Assembly (NCBI GenBank): GCA_022794035.1
Contig: JAAWDX010000001.1
Coordinates: 209,936-273,935 of the forward strand
Length of the DNA: 64,000 bases
Direction: 5' to 3'
DNA from: Lachnospiraceae bacterium
GTDB taxonomy: Bacteria; Bacillota; Clostridia; Lachnospirales; Bianqueaceae
The translations under genes and the position numbers were made by a program. Below are positions 3,784-55,985 of this stretch, one piece after another. Under the pieces are notes generated by a model. The model did no database searches. It was given only the letters and a program-made list of their open reading frames with translations, and was not told the origin of the DNA. Position 1 is the stretch's first letter. The number at the start of each line of letters is the position of its first letter.

Positions 3784-4469
3784 TGCGGATGGATACAAAA
3801 AATATGATCATCGTAAAAAACGTCTCCCGGGGCTTTGAGGTAGGAGGAGACGATCTGTTCTGGGCGCTTAAGCATATCGATATGGAAATCCCCAGAGGGA
3901 AGCTGACAATCCTCAAAGGGCGCTCCGGCTCGGGTAAAACGACGCTCATGAACATTTTAAGCGCACTGGATCAGCCCACAGAAGGAACCGTATTTTTAGG
4001 CGATAATGAGCTTACGAAAATGTCTGAAAAGCAGAGGACCCATCTGCGGCGTAAAGAGGTAGGCTATATCTTTCAGTCCGTAGCGCTGATTCCGATGATG
4101 ACGGCCTATGAAAATGTAGAGTTTAGTCTTCGGCTTGCCGGCTACGAGGAAAACTGGAAGGAGCGGGTCACTAAATGCCTGCATATGGTGGGGCTGGGCG
4201 CTCGGATGCAGCATATGCCGCAGGAGCTTTCCGGCGGTGAGCAGCAGCGTGTGGCCATTGCCAGGGCGGTGGCGCATAAGCCTGCGGTCTTATTTGCCGA
4301 TGAACCTACGGCAGAGCTGGATACCAATACAGGACTACAGGTAATGAAAATTTTTAAAGATCTTTGCCAGGATGAAGGAGTCACGGTCATCATGACGACG
4401 CATGATACGGGGCTGATGGAGATCGGCGATCAGGTCTATGAGCTGGAGGATGGTGAGATCATTGGCTGA
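3783..4469 (+). CDS. ABC transporter ATP-binding protein (MacB/LolD-like NBD 1)
   Basis: Walker A GRSGSGKTT, Q-loop, ABC signature LSGGEQQRVAIARA, Walker B VLFADEPT and H-loop TTHD. Confidence 0.93.
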   Translation: MRMDTKNMIIVKNVSRGFEVGGDDLFWALKHIDMEIPRGKLTILKGRSGSGKTTLMNILSALDQPTEGTVFLGDNELTKMSEKQRTHLRRKEVGYIFQSVALIPMMTAYENVEFSLRLAGYEENWKERVTKCLHMVGLGARMQHMPQELSGGEQQRVAIARAVAHKPAVLFADEPTAELDTNTGLQVMKIFKDLCQDEGVTVIMTTHDTGLMEIGDQVYELEDGEIIG

Positions 4470-4473
4470 AAAT

Positions 4474-5394
4474 ATGATTGAGTGCGAGAATCTGGTCAAA
4501 ATTTATAAGACAGAAGACATAGAGGTACTGGCGCTGCAGGGGCTGGAGCTTACTGTGCAGAAGGGCGAGCTGATGGCGATCATCGGCAACAGCGGCAGCG
4601 GTAAGTCGACCTTTTTGAATATGATTGGCGGGCTGGACCGCCCTTCGGCCGGACGTCTGTATGTGGATGGCCTGGATCTGTTTAAGCTTTCAGAAGCAGA
4701 GCTGGTGGCTTATAAGCGTGACATAGTTGGCTTTGTCTGGCAAAACAACGCCCGTAACCTAATGCCCTATTTAACCGCGCTGGAGAATGTGCAGATGCCG
4801 ATGATGTTTACGACCAGGCGGCGGCAAAGGGAGCGCGCAATGGAGCTTTTGGAGCTGGTAGGCCTCGGGCATCGTAAAAACAGTAAGCTAAGCTCCCTTT
4901 CCGGCGGAGAACAGCAGCGTGTGGCCATTGCCATTGCGCTGGCAAACGATCCCAAGCTGCTGCTTGCGGATGAGCCTACTGGCAGCGTAGACGTGAGAAC
5001 GAGCGATTATCTACTGGATACATTCCGTGCGCTGAATGAAGAGCTCGGACTTACGATTGTGATTGTAACGCATGACCGTCATTTGGCGAAGAAGGTCAAC
5101 CGTGTGGTTTCCATCCGCGATGGAAAGACCAGCAGTGAGATGATCATGCGGCAGAGCTATCGGGAGCGCATGAAGGAGCTGGATGGGCTGGACGATGGCA
5201 TGGCAGAGGCGATGGCGGAAGCAGCACATGAAGAATTCACAGTGCTGGACAGGGCCGGCAGGCTGCAGATTCCTTCGCAGATGCTGGATGAGATCGGCGC
5301 AACCAGCCACAAGGTTAAATTAGAGGTTGTCGATGGCCGGATTGTCATTGCTCCGGAAGAACAGGAGAATACAGAGGATAAGGAACAAGCATAA
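4474..5394 (+). CDS. ABC transporter ATP-binding protein (NBD 2) with a C-terminal extension of about 90 aa
   Basis: Walker A GNSGSGKST, signature LSGGEQQRVAIAIA, Walker B LLLADEPT and H-loop VTHD. I prefer the ATG at 4474 (MIECENLVKIY, just after the upstream stop) over the ORF-track start at 4438, which overlaps the previous gene. The tail contains RLQIPSQMLDEIGATSHKVKLEVVDGRIVIAPEE. Confidence 0.9.
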   Translation: MIECENLVKIYKTEDIEVLALQGLELTVQKGELMAIIGNSGSGKSTFLNMIGGLDRPSAGRLYVDGLDLFKLSEAELVAYKRDIVGFVWQNNARNLMPYLTALENVQMPMMFTTRRRQRERAMELLELVGLGHRKNSKLSSLSGGEQQRVAIAIALANDPKLLLADEPTGSVDVRTSDYLLDTFRALNEELGLTIVIVTHDRHLAKKVNRVVSIRDGKTSSEMIMRQSYRERMKELDGLDDGMAEAMAEAAHEEFTVLDRAGRLQIPSQMLDEIGATSHKVKLEVVDGRIVIAPEEQENTEDKEQA

Positions 5395-5396
5395 AT

Positions 5397-5450
5397 AAAA
5401 CACCCCAATGCATAAATTGTACTATATTATGGATTGGGGTGTTTTATTTA
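5397..5450 (+). terminator. Putative intrinsic terminator of the ABC operon
   Basis: Inverted repeat AAAACACCCCAAT (5397-5409) / ATTGGGGTGTTTT (5433-5445), followed by a T-rich tail. The loop is long (23 nt), which lowers confidence. Confidence 0.45.
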
Positions 5451-5707
5451 TGGGAGCTAGATGGATGGTAGAGGCTATGATTATTTTATTATCGCTTTCC
5501 GTGGTGATGATCATATGGCCGGGAATGAGGAAATTTATTTTGGGCTTTGTCCGCAATGCAGCAGTAGGGCTCTGTTTATTACAGCTGGCTGCTGTCGCGT
5601 TCGGACCGCAGCTTCAGGTAGGCCTTAACCTGCTGACGGGAGGAATTTGCGGTCTGTTTGGACTGCCGGGCACGGCCATGCTCTTAATTTTAAAAGGGGT
5701 GATGTAA
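5450..5707 (+). CDS. bofA: BofA-family (pro-sigma-K processing inhibitor-like) small membrane protein
   Basis: Small two-TM protein whose C-terminal half (GLNLLTGGICGLFGLPGTAMLLILKGVM) matches the BofA-family signature as I remember it. The ORF-track start (5408) lies inside the upstream hairpin, so ATG 5450 or ATG 5465 (GGGAG 8 nt upstream) is more plausible. Confidence 0.5.
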   Translation: MGARWMVEAMIILLSLSVVMIIWPGMRKFILGFVRNAAVGLCLLQLAAVAFGPQLQVGLNLLTGGICGLFGLPGTAMLLILKGVM

Positions 5708-27693: not shown

Positions 27694-27700
27694 AAAGAAA

Positions 27701-27749
27701 GAAGGGCTTCCTTAGGCTGCCAAGCGGCAGCTAAGGAAGCCCTTCTTTT
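27701..27749 (+). terminator. Intrinsic terminator of the giant gene
   Basis: Long stem GAAGGGCTTCCTTAG(G)CTGCC / GGCAGCTAAGGAAGCCCTTC with loop AAGC, followed by TTTT (27746-27749), starting 8 nt after the stop codon. Confidence 0.85.
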
Positions 27750-28063
27750 GCATGTTGGCGGGGGCGTGAGAATGATTATCACCAACATGCAAATGGTGGA
27801 TTTGCACGCCGGAGGCAGCGCAGGAATGATTGACATGGACATGCAAACAGTGGATTTGCATGCCGAAGGGGGCGCAGGAATGATTGACATGGGCATGCAA
27901 ACAGTGGATTTGCATGTCGGAGGGGGCGCAGGAATGATTGCCGCCAACATGCAAACAGTGAATTTGCATGTCGAAGGACGTTCGGGAATGATTGACATGG
28001 ACATGCAAACAGTGAATTTGCATGTCGATAGGAACCCGGGAATGATTATCACCAACATGCAAA
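27746..28063 (+). repeat. Tandem array with a 54-bp period: 5 full and 2 partial units, each with the palindrome ATGCAAA-N7-TTTGCAT
   Basis: Unit starts (ATGCAAA) fall at 27787, 27841, 27895, 27949, 28003 and 28057, exactly 54 bp apart. An example unit is ATGCAAACAGTGGATTTGCATGCCGAAGGGGGCGCAGGAATGATTGACATGGGC. The array fills the whole gap between the two convergent terminators. Confidence 0.95.
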
Positions 28064-28099
28064 AACAAGCCCTTCCGCAAATAATGCGGAAGGGCTTGT
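28059..28099 (-). terminator. Intrinsic terminator of gyrA
   Basis: On the minus strand, the stem ACAAGCCCTTCCGCA / TGCGGAAGGGCTTGT (28065-28099) is followed by TTTTT. It lies 20 nt after the gyrA stop. Confidence 0.85.
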
Positions 28100-28118
28100 T
28101 ATAAACTTGCTTTCAATT

Positions 28119-30596
28119 TTATTCCTCGGCGGAATCCTCTTCAATTTTCTCTTCGCGAATCTTCGCGATGCTGACGATCTTGGTGTCCTTATCAAGTCCC
28201 ATCAGCTTCACGCCGGAGGTCACGCGGCCGATCTCGCTGATATCCTGTACGCGCAGGCGGATGATAACGCCTCCGCTCGTAATCAGCATCAGATCCTGAT
28301 CCGGTGAAACCAGCTTAAAGCTAACCACATCGCCGGTCTTGGCGGTAATACGGTAATACAGATTGCCCTTGCCGCCGCGCTTTTGCACGGAAAACTCGGT
28401 CAGAGCCGTGCGCTTGCCCATACCGTTTTCGGTAACGGCCAGCGCGGAATCTCCCTGCGAGGTCAGCTGCACGCCGATCACTTCATCGCCAGCGCCGAGC
28501 GTAATACCCTTTACGCCCATGGAGCTGCGGCCGGTCGTACGCACATCAGTTTCGCGGAAGCGAATGATCTGGCCGCGCTTGGTGGCCATGAGCACTTCAT
28601 CCTTGCCGCTGGAGCGCTTAACCTCGATCAGCTCATCGCCCTCCTGAAGGGAAATAGCAATCAGTCCATTCGTACGAATATTGCTGTATTCAGCAAGATC
28701 TGTCTTTTTGATAATACCATTTTTGGTCGCCATCAGCAGATAGCCCTTATCGCGCTTTTCCTTCATCTGAATGGCAGCGCTGACCTGTTCGCCGCCGCTC
28801 AGCGACAGCAGGTTCACAATGGCCGTGCCGCGGGCCGTGCGGCCTGCCTCGGGGATCTCATAAGCCTTCATGCGGTATACGCGGCCCCAGTTGGTAAAGA
28901 ACAGCACATAATCATGCGAGGAAGCGATGAAGAGATGCTTTACAAAATCCTCTTCGCGGGTTTCGATACCCTTAATGCCCTTGCCGCCGCGGTTCTGGCT
29001 GTGATACATGTCTAAGGAGGTGCGTTTGATGTAGCCAAGATTGGTCATCGTGATGACGCAGCTCTCGTTTTTGATCAAATCCTCTAAGTTGATCTCGCCT
29101 TCCTCATAAGTAATATAGGTGCGGCGCGGATCTGCATATTTGGTTTTCAGTACCAGCAGCTCTTCCTTGATCACGCTGAACAGTATATTTTCATTTCCTA
29201 AAATGGCTAAATACTCCTGAATCTTTTCTGTCAGCTCATCATACTCATTTTGCAGACGGTCGCGCTCCAGTCCGGTCAGCGCACGCAGACGCATGTCCAC
29301 GATTGCCTGTGCCTGTGCATCGCTGAACTCAAAGCGGGCGATCAGGTTTGCCTTTGCCTCGGCCACGTTAGAGGAAGCACGGATAATGGAGATAATTTCA
29401 TCAATGTAGTCCAGCGCCTTTAAAAGACCCTCTAAGATGTGCGCACGCGCCTGTGCCTTATCCAGATCATACTGCGTACGGCGCGTTACAACCTCTTTCT
29501 GATGATCCAGATAGTAGGTGAGCATCTGCTTTAAATTCAGCACCTTAGGCTCATTATTCACAAGGGCCAGCATGTTGATGCTAAACGTATCCTGCAGGGG
29601 TGTATTTTTATAGAGCTGATTGATGATCAGCCGCGCATTGGCATCGCGCTTTAAATCAATCACGATCCGCAGACCGTTACGGTTGGTCTCATCGCGCAGA
29701 TCAGAAATCCCTTCAATTTTTTTGTCCTTAACCAGCTCAGCAATACGCTCGACCAAACGCGCTTTATTCACCTGATAAGGAATCTCGGAGACCACAATGC
29801 ACTGGCGGTGTCCCGGAAGCTCTTCGACCTCCATATTCGCGCGAACAACTGCGCGCCCGCGCCCGGTGCGGTAGGCCTGCTCAATATCGCGCACGCCGTA
29901 AATGGTTGCGCCGGTGGGGAAGTCAGGTCCCTTTACAATCTGCATCAGCTCGTCAATGGTGGTATCGCGGTCCTCGAGCATGTGGTTGTCGATGATTTTC
30001 ACAACCGCATCGATCACCTCGCCCAGATTGTGCGGGGGGATGCTGGTGGCCATACCAACGGCGATACCGCCGGTTCCGTTCACCAGCAGGTTGGGAAAGC
30101 GTGCGGGCAGCACGGTGGGCTCCTTTAAAGAGCCGTCAAAGTTGGCGGTAAAGTCAACGGTATTTTTATTGATATCCGAGAGCATCTCCATCGAAAGCTT
30201 GCTCAGGCGCGCCTCGGTATAACGCATAGCGGCAGCGCCGTCGCCGTCCATCGAGCCGAAGTTGCCGTGCCCGTCGACCAGCATATAGCGCGTGGAAAAG
30301 TCCTGTGCCAAGCGCACCATGGCTTCATAAATAGAGCTGTCGCCGTGTGGGTGGTATTTACCCATCGTATCGCCCACGATACGGGCTGATTTACGGTAGG
30401 ATTTGTCCGGGGATAAACCCAGCTCATTCATCGCGTGCAGAATGCGGCGCTGAACGGGCTTCATGCCGTCACGCACATCCGGCAGCGCACGCGTGGTAAT
30501 TACGCTCATGGCATAGTCAATAAAGCTGTCCTTCATCATTTTTTCCAGATTGACAATCTCAATCCGGTCATGCTGCGGCGTCTGATTTTCGTCCAT
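28119..30596 (-). CDS. gyrA: DNA gyrase subunit A
   Basis: 825 aa. N-terminus ...[32 protein letters not shown], the active-site region [10 protein letters not shown] and C-terminal beta-pinwheel repeats. Located directly downstream of gyrB, with its SD inside the gyrB 3' end. Confidence 0.98.
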
Positions 30597-32768: not shown

Positions 32769-33077
32769 GGAAAACGCGCTTTTTAAATCAGGTTTTTTTA
32801 ATCAAATTCATGACGGGAAGGCAGGGGATTATTATCACCAGATACATACAAATCAGCGCTCCCGTCAGGCGTCGGATTGACAGATGCGTTTTGGGCTAGG
32901 CTTTGGGCTTGCGCTTCTGACATCGTATTTGTGGCCTGTATTTCTGGTCTGCGTTTCTGGCCTCGTTTTCAGCCGCCACTGGCGGAAGAGGACGATTTAG
33001 CTGAACTTTTTCCACCGTGTATAGCGGAACGGTCATGAAGTAGCTGAAAAATACCCGTTAGCAAGCGGCGCCAAATC

Positions 33078-54565: not shown

Positions 54566-54835
54566 ATAATAAAAAATCCCGAATAAACACACTGTTTATT
54601 CGGGGGTACATACAAGTACGGTTCCACCTCGATGTTTCACTTTAGGACGGCATCCGGCATCTAAGCATGCGCGGTGCGATCCCTTTGACCGATAACGAGG
54701 TCAGTCGCCTGCCTTATATCAGCAGGGGCTCGGGAGTGGTTTTCATTATGAGCTGACCATAAAAAGCTTGCAGCCAAAGGCCTTTTTTCTCTGTCTGGCG
54801 TTCATAACTACTCGTTCCGTCTTTGCACTTTGTGT
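54566..54835 (-). promoter_or_regulatory. T-box riboswitch leader (Thr) of thrS
   Basis: Minus strand: a T-box-like sequence GAGGTGGAACCGTAC (complement of 54616-54630) sits immediately before a terminator CCCGAATAAACA-GTGTG-TTTATTCGGG + ATTTTTT (54571-54605). A candidate ACC specifier lies in GAAAACCAC (complement of 54738-54740). thrS is a classic T-box-regulated gene in Firmicutes. Confidence 0.75.
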
Positions 54836-54873: not shown

Positions 54874-55623
54874 TTAATTCGGTAAACGGCTTAAATGCAG
54901 GGCCTTGATTTTAAATAGCGCGTCGAGCTCGTCAAAAACGCCGTTTCGATCCTGTGTGATGACAAGTCCGTTCCCTTCTGAAATTTGGTGCATGGTGTAG
55001 AAACGGTTTTTTTCTGCCCATTTTTGCGCATAGCTTTTAATATGAAGCATCCCCAGATGTTCCCAATATATTTCATGGCCGTCCGGTCCGATAAGTGTGA
55101 AATCGGGGAGAACCATGCGGCCGTTTAAAATCAGGGTTTTTTCATATTGATAGGGAATGTTATGATAATAGAAAATATTAGCGAGTAAGGCTTCTGACTT
55201 GGAACGTACATATTCGCCGCGCAGCGTGAGGTGCTTTAAGTTCTCAGGGTATACGGCAGAAGAGGGGATAACAGGTGATGGGCTTTCTGTAGCTGAAAGC
55301 TGCTGAGGGTCAAGATGAAGTGTTTTGAGGCATTTTTTCACAAGAGTTAATTTTTTTCTTGTAATGCGCAGATCTGCTTCTATATTTTGGAGTCTGCGGA
55401 TTTCTTGTTCATAAGTAGAAATTTCGTCTGCCGGGACCTTTTTCGTGTGCCGCTTTCCGTGAGTATAAAAGCAGTAATATATTTCGGGTTGTTTACGGCT
55501 TTTACGAGTTTCCAGCCTGCCGGGGCTGTGAATGCGTTTTTGGAGAAGAGTTTGCTGCATGTTGGTTAGTTCCTGATAGGCCTGTGATAGCAGATTTTCA
55601 ATATCCCATAATCCTAAATTCAT
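54874..55623 (-). CDS. Hypothetical protein with a PD-(D/E)XK-nuclease-like C-terminal half
   Basis: I chose the start at MNLGLWDIENLL (ATG 55621-55623, GGAGG 7 nt upstream). The ORF-track extension to 55815 runs into the repeat array. The C-terminal pattern VRSKSEALLANIF...YQYE...LPDFTLIGPDGHEIYWEHLG fits an E / PD / E.. restriction-endonuclease-like core. I do not recognise a specific family. Confidence 0.55.
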   Translation of the reverse strand: MNLGLWDIENLLSQAYQELTNMQQTLLQKRIHSPGRLETRKSRKQPEIYYCFYTHGKRHTKKVPADEISTYEQEIRRLQNIEADLRITRKKLTLVKKCLKTLHLDPQQLSATESPSPVIPSSAVYPENLKHLTLRGEYVRSKSEALLANIFYYHNIPYQYEKTLILNGRMVLPDFTLIGPDGHEIYWEHLGMLHIKSYAQKWAEKNRFYTMHQISEGNGLVITQDRNGVFDELDALFKIKALHLSRLPN

Positions 55624-55720
55624 TGATGTACCTCCGAAAATGATTTTTATATTATTAGTATCGGAGTTTTTTAGTGAAAAGCACAGCCTACTTTGGAAAT
55701 TTATTATTTTTAGAGAAACT

Positions 55721-55985
55721 TGCATGTCGGCAGTGGATACGGCAGAGAGGAAATCGGCGTGCATGCGGTTAAAATGCATGTCGGTGATGACTTGATTTTG
55801 GCAGAGAATCAACATGCAAAATTAAGAAAAGCATGCTGGTTTAAGTGACGGTAGAACGGAAATCAGCATGCAAATTGATTAAATGCATGCTGGTAGACAT
55901 GCAGTCTGATGGGCCTACCGGCATGCAAATGAATAGGGTGCATGCTGGTGAGCTAAAATCGAGTATAAAAACCGACATGCAATAA
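55721..55985 (+). repeat. Second, diverged copy of the ~54-bp-period palindrome array (about 5 units)
   Basis: ATGC(A/G) unit starts fall at 55763, 55814, 55868, 55923 and 55977, giving spacings of 51, 54, 55 and 54 bp. The cores are ATGCAAATTGATTAAATGCATGCTGG, ATGCAAATGAATAGGGTGCATGCTGG, ATGCAAAATTAAGAAAAGCATGCTGG and ATGCGGTTAAAATGCATGTCGG. The 10-mer TGCATGTCGG is shared with the 27.8-kb array. Confidence 0.85.

Follow-up and report, generated by a model that had tools for sequence, protein, structure and literature searches.

A 47-bp element with 12-bp terminal inverted repeats forms tandem arrays at gyrA and at a LysR locus in an uncultured clostridial lineage

The array between two convergent terminators

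What is a run of regularly spaced palindromes doing between two converging genes? In the window (the whole stretch of 64,000 nt analysed here), 425 bp separate the stop codon of an ORF for a 7270-aa surface protein (5881-27693, plus strand) from that of gyrA (28119-30596, minus strand), confirmed as such by its Pfam domains. Between the terminators of these two genes lies an array, here called A, of six units in exact 54-bp register (27747-28063). It might be a small gene, a structured RNA, a set of sites for protein binding or recombination, or part of a dispersed repeat family. The last is the probable answer: array A is best read as a cluster of a lineage-specific, non-coding, interspersed repeat, and as a new family of the kind represented by BIME or REPIN clusters, BOX and NIMEs. 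Mosaic repeats of this sort are poorly catalogued in the group of Clostridia concerned, and the family would be a previously undescribed one, from an uncultured gut-type lineage near Bianquea and Acutalibacteraceae (GyrA 81% identical to that of Bianquea renquensis; LysR 84% identical to that of an Acutalibacteraceae MAG).

The original prediction of a 54-bp palindrome array between convergent terminators is borne out by TRF (period 54, 4.5-5.4 copies, 81-85% matches, essentially without indels, span 27770/27785-28028/28063) and by counts of the 21-nt dyad ATGCAAACAGTGGATTTGCAT, which is present five times with zero to three mismatches, at 27787, 27841, 27895, 27949 and 28003, where chance would give 0.01. 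The box GGAATGATT, rightly singled out as conserved, also occurs five times (1.0 expected) and only in array A. That the array begins and ends within terminator T-runs is likewise so. The terminator hairpin of the 7270-aa gene (27697-27749, plus strand) has a stem of about 24 bp, from sequence and RNA fold, and the left arm with which the array opens overlaps its T-run, CTTTTGCATG; that of gyrA (28064-28100, minus strand), from sequence and folds, has a 16-bp stem and a 5-nt loop, with the array ending in its A/T-run. The terminal arms of the array thus supply the U-runs of both terminators. Neither hairpin is on the list from a simple terminator scan; both are strong and are visible in folds, as stems of 16-24 bp.

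Other details fared less evenly. The 7-bp inverted repeat assigned to each unit is there in five dyads, but unit 1 deviates (loop TGGTGGA, 3′ arm TTTGCAC) and the arms reach 9-13 bp rather than 7; the first of the partial units exists, but carries AGAATGATT. The outermost units do resemble each other more than their neighbours, both having ATTATCACCAAC, and the same holds in a second strain. What fails is the placing of all dyads on one side of the helix: at 10.5 bp per turn 54 bp is 5.14 turns, a rotation of about 51 degrees per unit, so that the dyads are not strictly on one helical face.

The repeating element

The natural unit is not the hairpin first described but an element of 47-48 bp bounded by 12-bp inverted repeats, TTTGCATGYYGG ... 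CCRRCATGCAAA. Its left arm is (T/A)(T/A)TGCATGYYGG, its right arm, CCRRCATGCAAA, is the inverted complement of this, and the interior of about 23 nt between them varies freely. Elements joined head to tail through 7-nt linkers give the 54-55-bp period, and the dyad of the original prediction straddles a junction, running from the right arm of one element through the linker into the left arm of its neighbour. The main reason for taking the element rather than the dyad as basic is that the start of the left arm and the end of the right arm are common to array A, to arrays B and C and to a solitary copy in a sister species, L176.

Array A opens with TTTGCATG and closes with CATGCAAA, and is parsed on the plus strand as six 47-bp elements and five 7-nt linkers. 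A0 (27747-27793), of terminal type, has left arm TTTGCATGTTGG, an interior with AGAATGATTATC and right arm CCAACATGCAAA, the arms being complementary at 12 of 12 positions. The internal-type elements are A1 (27801-27847), identical to unit 1 of strain L161, A2 (27855-27901), with one difference from unit 4 of that strain, and A4 (27963-28009), with two differences from its unit 6; A3 occupies 27909-27955. A5 (28017-28063) is again of terminal type, and on the minus strand its right arm, CATGCAAAAA, provides the gyrA terminator with its U-run. The linkers, to which no strand is assigned, begin at 27794 (27794-27800), 27848, 27902, 27956 and 28010, and read TGGTGGA once and CAGTGGA and CAGTGAA twice each. 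Within A0, TGAGAATGATTATCA (27767-27781) agrees at 14 of 15 positions with what is taken here to be the Bacillus Fur-box 7-1-7 consensus, TGATAATNATTATCA. Since the internal units do not match, this is probably coincidence, and it was set aside together with a resemblance of the linker to a DnaA box, neither being a feature of the whole family.

The arms are A+T-rich, with a self-complementary core (CATG/GCATGC) of just 4-6 bp, and are complementary at 8-12 of their 12 positions; single elements fold as DNA with -5 to -13 kcal/mol. Pairing between arms scores 10.5 and 9.75 of 12 within an element and 9.8 and 8.9 across a junction, as against 9.8 and 9.1 for arbitrary arms of the same array, and arms taken from different arrays pair equally well. 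As pairing within elements or at junctions is no better than that of arbitrary or cross-array arms, it is the sequence of the arms, and not their pairing, that is conserved.

A second array, and the search for others

A relaxed search for the dyad picked out, near 55.9 kb, a pair of sites separated by 55 bp, and these led to array B, about 28 kb from array A. It has five elements on the plus strand (55719-55983 overall; 55719-55765, 55773-55820, 55828-55874, 55882-55929 and 55937-55983) with a period of 54/55/54/55 and linkers of 7-9 nt; the arms are those of array A and the interiors are unrelated to it. Array B is flanked by two divergent promoters, that of a 249-aa nuclease-like gene and that of a LysR-family gene directly upstream of which it lies; no ORF spans it. 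A pattern made from the arms and spacing of array A (TGCATGYYGG-N20-27-RCATGCAA) matches three of the elements of array B, where 0.00 are expected and none of 100 shuffles gives a match. With a whole-unit profile built from array A alone, the units of arrays B and C are not significant (E of 1 or more), and the relationship of A to B accordingly rests on arms and spacing, the interiors being unrelated. An HMM of the family detects the solitary copy in L176, which was absent from the model, at E=0.004.

At least two loci of the host genome, and their orthologues in the sister species, carry the family. Extension of the window by 10 kb to the right and about 2 kb to the left revealed no further arrays, and nhmmer, run on the window, its 10-kb extension and the loci in relatives, added only the one solitary element; the count is two loci and 11 elements within the approximately 74 kb of genome read. 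Further afield, a scan of GTDB species genomes with CATGCAAANNGTGNATTTGCA, too specific a pattern, yielded 19 single matches in unrelated taxa, about the number due to chance, and the three among them from Clostridia proved on inspection to be in coding sequence or a lone palindrome. The matches listed for a two-junction pattern in metagenomes are eukaryote-like microsatellites. Two scans of viral contigs gave one chance match and then zero, and blastn of array A against plasmid and phage records gave none. The metagenome scan also brought up, by chance, an unrelated array of bacterial appearance on two soil contigs (L050, approximately 4100-4400, and L114, approximately 430-800); its period is about 75 bp, and each unit has several CATGCA-type dyads.

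The gyrA and LysR loci in relatives

Conservation in related strains, proposed as a check in the original prediction, turns out to be graded. Ten contigs with identical GyrA all have an identical array A. Strain L161, with flanks 98.1-98.4% identical (gyrA DNA 98.4%), has eight units to the window's six, again in exact 54-bp register, the number between the two terminal ones being six as against four in the window. Three of the inner units are orthologous, with 0, 1 and 2 differences, and the terminal ones, which share ATTATCACCAAC in both strains, are more diverged. Copy number thus changes by whole 54-bp steps between strains. Three other relatives, L033, L030 and L034, have GyrA proteins 97-98% identical and gyrA DNA 85-88% identical. 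At this locus L033 has two diverged elements with family arms, unrelated interiors and a second terminator of its own, and L030 has three units of 53-56 bp with dyads altered on both arms (ACATGTACGCAA / TTGCGTACATGT), for which the family likeness is in architecture only (nhmmer E>1). L034 has no array; a single bidirectional terminator is followed by TTTTGCATGTTATGA. The difference between L033 and L034, whose gyrA genes are 91% identical and whose giant-gene 3′ ends are 95% identical, is a 167-bp block with a TTTGCAT direct repeat at either end. Neither the giant gene nor the array is present in relatives at 89% GyrA identity, where bofA abuts gyrA.

The 7270-aa protein itself has DUF11, Cna-B-like and pilin-like Ig domains and a C-terminal membrane anchor, and its gene (region 5408-27693) sits as a lineage-specific insertion with a bofA-like gene (5408-5707) on one side and gyrA on the other. 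In L030, at approximately 4590-4640, the stem of the gyrA terminator, AACCGGCATGA-ATTTTA-TCATGTCGGTT, is made of sequence resembling the family arms (CCGRCATG / CATGYCGG), a hint, from sequence, that junction hairpins may be recruited as terminators.

At the LysR locus the sister species L176 (LysR 88% identical) has an orthologue of the fifth element of array B, preceded by a remnant of the second. The CATG core is mutated in both (to CACG and CCAG) and the promoter of the LysR gene is conserved; the 249-aa gene is absent. The solitary element there has no complete dyad. The family is inherited vertically at the gyrA and LysR loci and in some lineages is deleted or decaying. By the original prediction, dispersal of the unit as an extragenic repeat family, or absence of the array from close relatives, would have told against it, and in substance both are found, the family being dispersed and L034 being a close relative without the array.

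Coding and RNA readings

At first sight there is some reason to think of a small repeat protein. The plus-strand ORF 27772-28104 would encode 110 aa (146 aa in L161) made of 18-residue repeats, MQTVDLHxxGGxGMIDMD; gene callers place an ORF of 92-146 aa on every contig; 54 bp is 18 codons, so changes in copy number keep the frame; and L161 has GGAGGAG 8 nt before the ATG. Against this, the three codon positions contribute evenly to the differences among 14 units (27/33/36), three of the six frames are open, and there are stop codons in arrays B, C and D. The ORF, moreover, begins inside one terminator and runs through the other. Its exact sequence is absent from a collection of 15 billion proteins, and a search of 1.84 billion representatives found no real homologue, only four weak repeat-on-repeat matches. 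The coding reading is largely refuted and must be considered extremely improbable; the earlier judgement that the array is not a normally translated gene agrees with its lack of a coding signature. The 92-146-aa ‘genes’ that gene callers place on the array are almost certainly false annotations.

A transcribed, multi-hairpin RNA, acting for instance as a protein sponge through GGA motifs or as a source of processed hairpin RNAs, is very unlikely, even if somewhat less so. Folding predictions do give very stable structures (-182 and -186 kcal/mol; z = -10.4 and -12.6), and GGA motifs occur in the GGAATGATT box and in the loops of three of the five junctions. However, the stability is equal on both strands, and for inverted repeats it is a trivial consequence. 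The array is also enclosed between two terminators, with no promoter-like site found. Tests for hairpin covariation and for G-U strand bias gave no signal beyond the consensus: mismatches are of both A-C and G-T type with no G-U versus A-C asymmetry, and compensatory pairing is lacking. A CsrA sponge in particular was rejected, as conservation of the GGA motifs does not extend to arrays B and C. The search of Rfam that had been recommended matched no family to the array, the only real match in the region being a sub-threshold T-box upstream of thrS. CRISPR was also considered and rejected, the segments between the dyads of array A being near-identical and the window's proteins including no cas domains.

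Protein binding and recombination

The original prediction likened the array to plasmid centromeres and to arrays of operator sites. Sites for a dimeric protein, one on each 12-7-12 junction palindrome, could through their regular spacing build a higher-order nucleoprotein complex, whether centromere, operator or decoy. Consistent with this are the regularity of the palindromic junctions and the fixed 54-55-bp period at two loci, the conservation of the arm sequence itself across arrays A, B and C (with cross-array complementarity equal to that within arrays), and the position of array B directly upstream of a gene for a LysR-family regulator. But the arrays end in half-sites, the solitary element in L176 lacks a complete dyad, and at the LysR locus of that species the cores are mutated even though the LysR promoter is conserved, for which reason a LysR operator was rejected. 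One close relative, L034, does without the array and copy number is polymorphic, and the rotation of successive sites by about 51 degrees (5.14 turns per 54 bp) is also unfavorable. Overall, a protein-binding array is an unlikely reading.

The centromere version has the further difficulty of its surroundings. F sopC consists of 43-bp tandem direct repeats, each with a 7-bp inverted repeat, and tandem repeats each with a dyad are what is found here. Unlike sopC, which adjoins sopAB and is a single plasmid site, there are here two arrays on a chromosome segment that bears gyrB and gyrA. The Pfam matches of the window include no dedicated partition ATPase, no ParA/ParB or ParB-type family and no other partner gene, the neighbours of array A being the surface-protein gene and gyrA/gyrB. 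A centromere should be conserved, and required, in related replicons; array A is polymorphic in copy number, absent from L034, replaced in L030 and L033 and absent from the relatives at 89% GyrA identity. The half-dyad ends, the decay in the sister species, the absence in L034 and the lack of a partition or dedicated regulator gene nearby leave the centromere and operator readings unsupported.

The same 12-7-12 geometry is that of the core sites of tyrosine recombinases, such as lox, FRT or dif, and the arrays might on that ground mark places where DNA is captured or exchanged. In keeping with this, direct repeats resembling the arms flank the L033/L034 indel, and both arrays abut lineage-specific genes, the giant gene absent at 89% GyrA identity and the 249-aa gene absent from L176. 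Yet the window has no recombinase or integrase gene, and the four spacers of array B are all different, which would block recombination between its sites, where identical spacers would be looked for. As is known for Cre/loxP, 54 bp is too short a distance for synapsis of adjacent sites, and adjacent sites here are just that far apart. Nor is there arm-like sequence at the other boundary of either inserted gene. Site-specific recombination is a decidedly doubtful explanation, and it and protein binding are kept at low probability mainly on account of the otherwise unexplained constancy of linker and unit length.

An interspersed mosaic repeat

The reading of array A as a cluster of an interspersed mosaic repeat draws together its occurrence with its kin at several intergenic sites, changes in copy number by whole units, presence in some strains and absence in others, persistence by vertical descent accompanied by decay, ends that are conserved around interiors free to vary, and terminal units distinct from the rest. 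It was the REP/BIME-like resemblance, the third of those suggested from the outset, that gained from the second array 28 kb away, the difference in copy number between strains and the absence or replacement in close relatives.

On this reading arrays would grow and shrink through slipped-strand mispairing or unequal recombination between units. A trans-acting protein that recognizes the arms, putatively a transposase or recombinase, may seed or homogenize copies, a suggestion prompted by the conservation of the arms while the interiors diverge. Elements would persist where they do no harm, past two convergent terminators in one case and between two divergent promoters in the other, and any cellular role would be secondary; for instance, a read-through transcript would fold very stably and could in that way block 3′ exonucleases or act as a buffer in convergent transcription. 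There are no transposase, RAYT or recombinase genes among the window's proteins, and no target-site duplication at array A (flanks CCCTTCT / AACAAGC), at array B or at the L176 solitary copy.

Simple slippage does not account for a constant 7-nt linker and units of 53-56 bp in arrays whose interiors are unrelated, and a constraint on spacing may be involved. A 47-bp element with 12-bp arms, a constant 7-nt linker and orthologous persistence makes a compact case for that question. One proposal is that the arms are recognized by a host protein dedicated to them and passed on vertically, which would be a domesticated transposase or recombinase of RAYT-like kind and would maintain the arrays with their fixed 7-nt linker, in a REPIN-RAYT-like partnership of new architecture in Clostridia, possibly marking sites of capture of lineage-specific genes such as the giant adhesin gene and the PD-(D/E)xK nuclease-like gene. 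It is quite unlikely, and a new kind of system would be at hand only if the dedicated partner protein were found. A practical consequence of such arrays is that they break short-read assemblies, contigs L162 and L176-L181 ending inside repeats.

Relation to known repeat systems

REPIN clusters consist of tandem, ordered, near-identical units that include a flanking linker (PMC3116915), and BIMEs, together with NIMEs, have been reviewed by Delihas (PMC3184786). With the REPIN clusters and BIMEs of Pseudomonas and enterobacteria the present family has in common that its elements are short and extragenic, with inverted arms able to form a hairpin, that they are single or in tandem, with sites between convergent genes favoured, and that they are vertically inherited, with singlets decaying (PMC3116915, PMC3184786). 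The two-arm hairpin of REPs and REPINs has its counterpart in 12-bp arms around about 23 nt. However, each REP is a 20-40-nt, G+C-rich, imperfect palindrome, and the arms here are 12 nt long and A+T-rich. Also different are the length of the whole element, only 47 bp, and the clostridial host. REPs number tens to hundreds of extragenic copies per genome, with a single-copy RAYT (Y1 transposase) gene flanked by the repeats; the approximately 74 kb read here have two loci with 11 elements, and the window's proteins include no Y1_Tnp or other transposase domain. Terminal inverted repeats like those of MITEs are present (TTTGCATGYYGG / CCRRCATGCAAA in arrays A, B and C and in the solitary copy), but a target-site duplication is not, and the approximately 74 kb of sequence read holds no parent IS with matching inverted repeats.

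In pneumococcal BOX, which has the organization boxA-boxB(n)-boxC, the number of boxB modules varies between strains (Croucher et al., PMC3049150). The parallel is that both are composite intergenic repeats in which terminal modules of their own kind enclose a varying number of internal ones; length varies between strains, more so in longer arrays, and strong folding is predicted for any transcript (PMC3049150). Unlike BOX, in which the terminal inverted repeats are only on boxA and boxC, every unit here has both arms; the unit is 54 bp rather than the 45 bp of boxB, and no relation in sequence is apparent. NIMEs, similarly, are intergenic arrays of variable units delimited by short conserved inverted repeats (PMC3049150, PMC3184786), but their units are of 50-150 bp and from many families, and the taxon is unrelated. 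The dRS3 dyad that delimits them is ATTCCC-N8-GGGAAT.

Neighbouring features

The 249-aa hypothetical protein whose gene (54874-55623, minus strand) adjoins array B has no Pfam or NCBIfam match. Its C-terminal half matches the C-terminus of a PADLOC candidate defence protein, PDC-S68 (E=8e-34), and also a PD-(D/E)xK nuclease model.

A T-box leader lies upstream of thrS (54599-54832, minus strand; 58.5 bits, E=9e-12) and is about 90% conserved in the sister species. It was missed at the default threshold because its score is well below the Rfam gathering score of 93. In the 550-bp region upstream of gyrB there is a tandem repeat with a period of 13 bp (32915-32970; about four copies, 72-80% matches).

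A distinct tandem repeat of 43 bp, with inverted ends GTTCAGTGRT ... AYCACTGAAC, is present in L176 (5614-5711), right after the terminator downstream of an Sm_multidrug_ex gene. It recurs at the ends of contigs L177, L178, L180 and L181, so that five independent contigs terminate inside it. As the sister species thus has a different family after another terminator, palindrome-ended arrays are a habit of the lineage.
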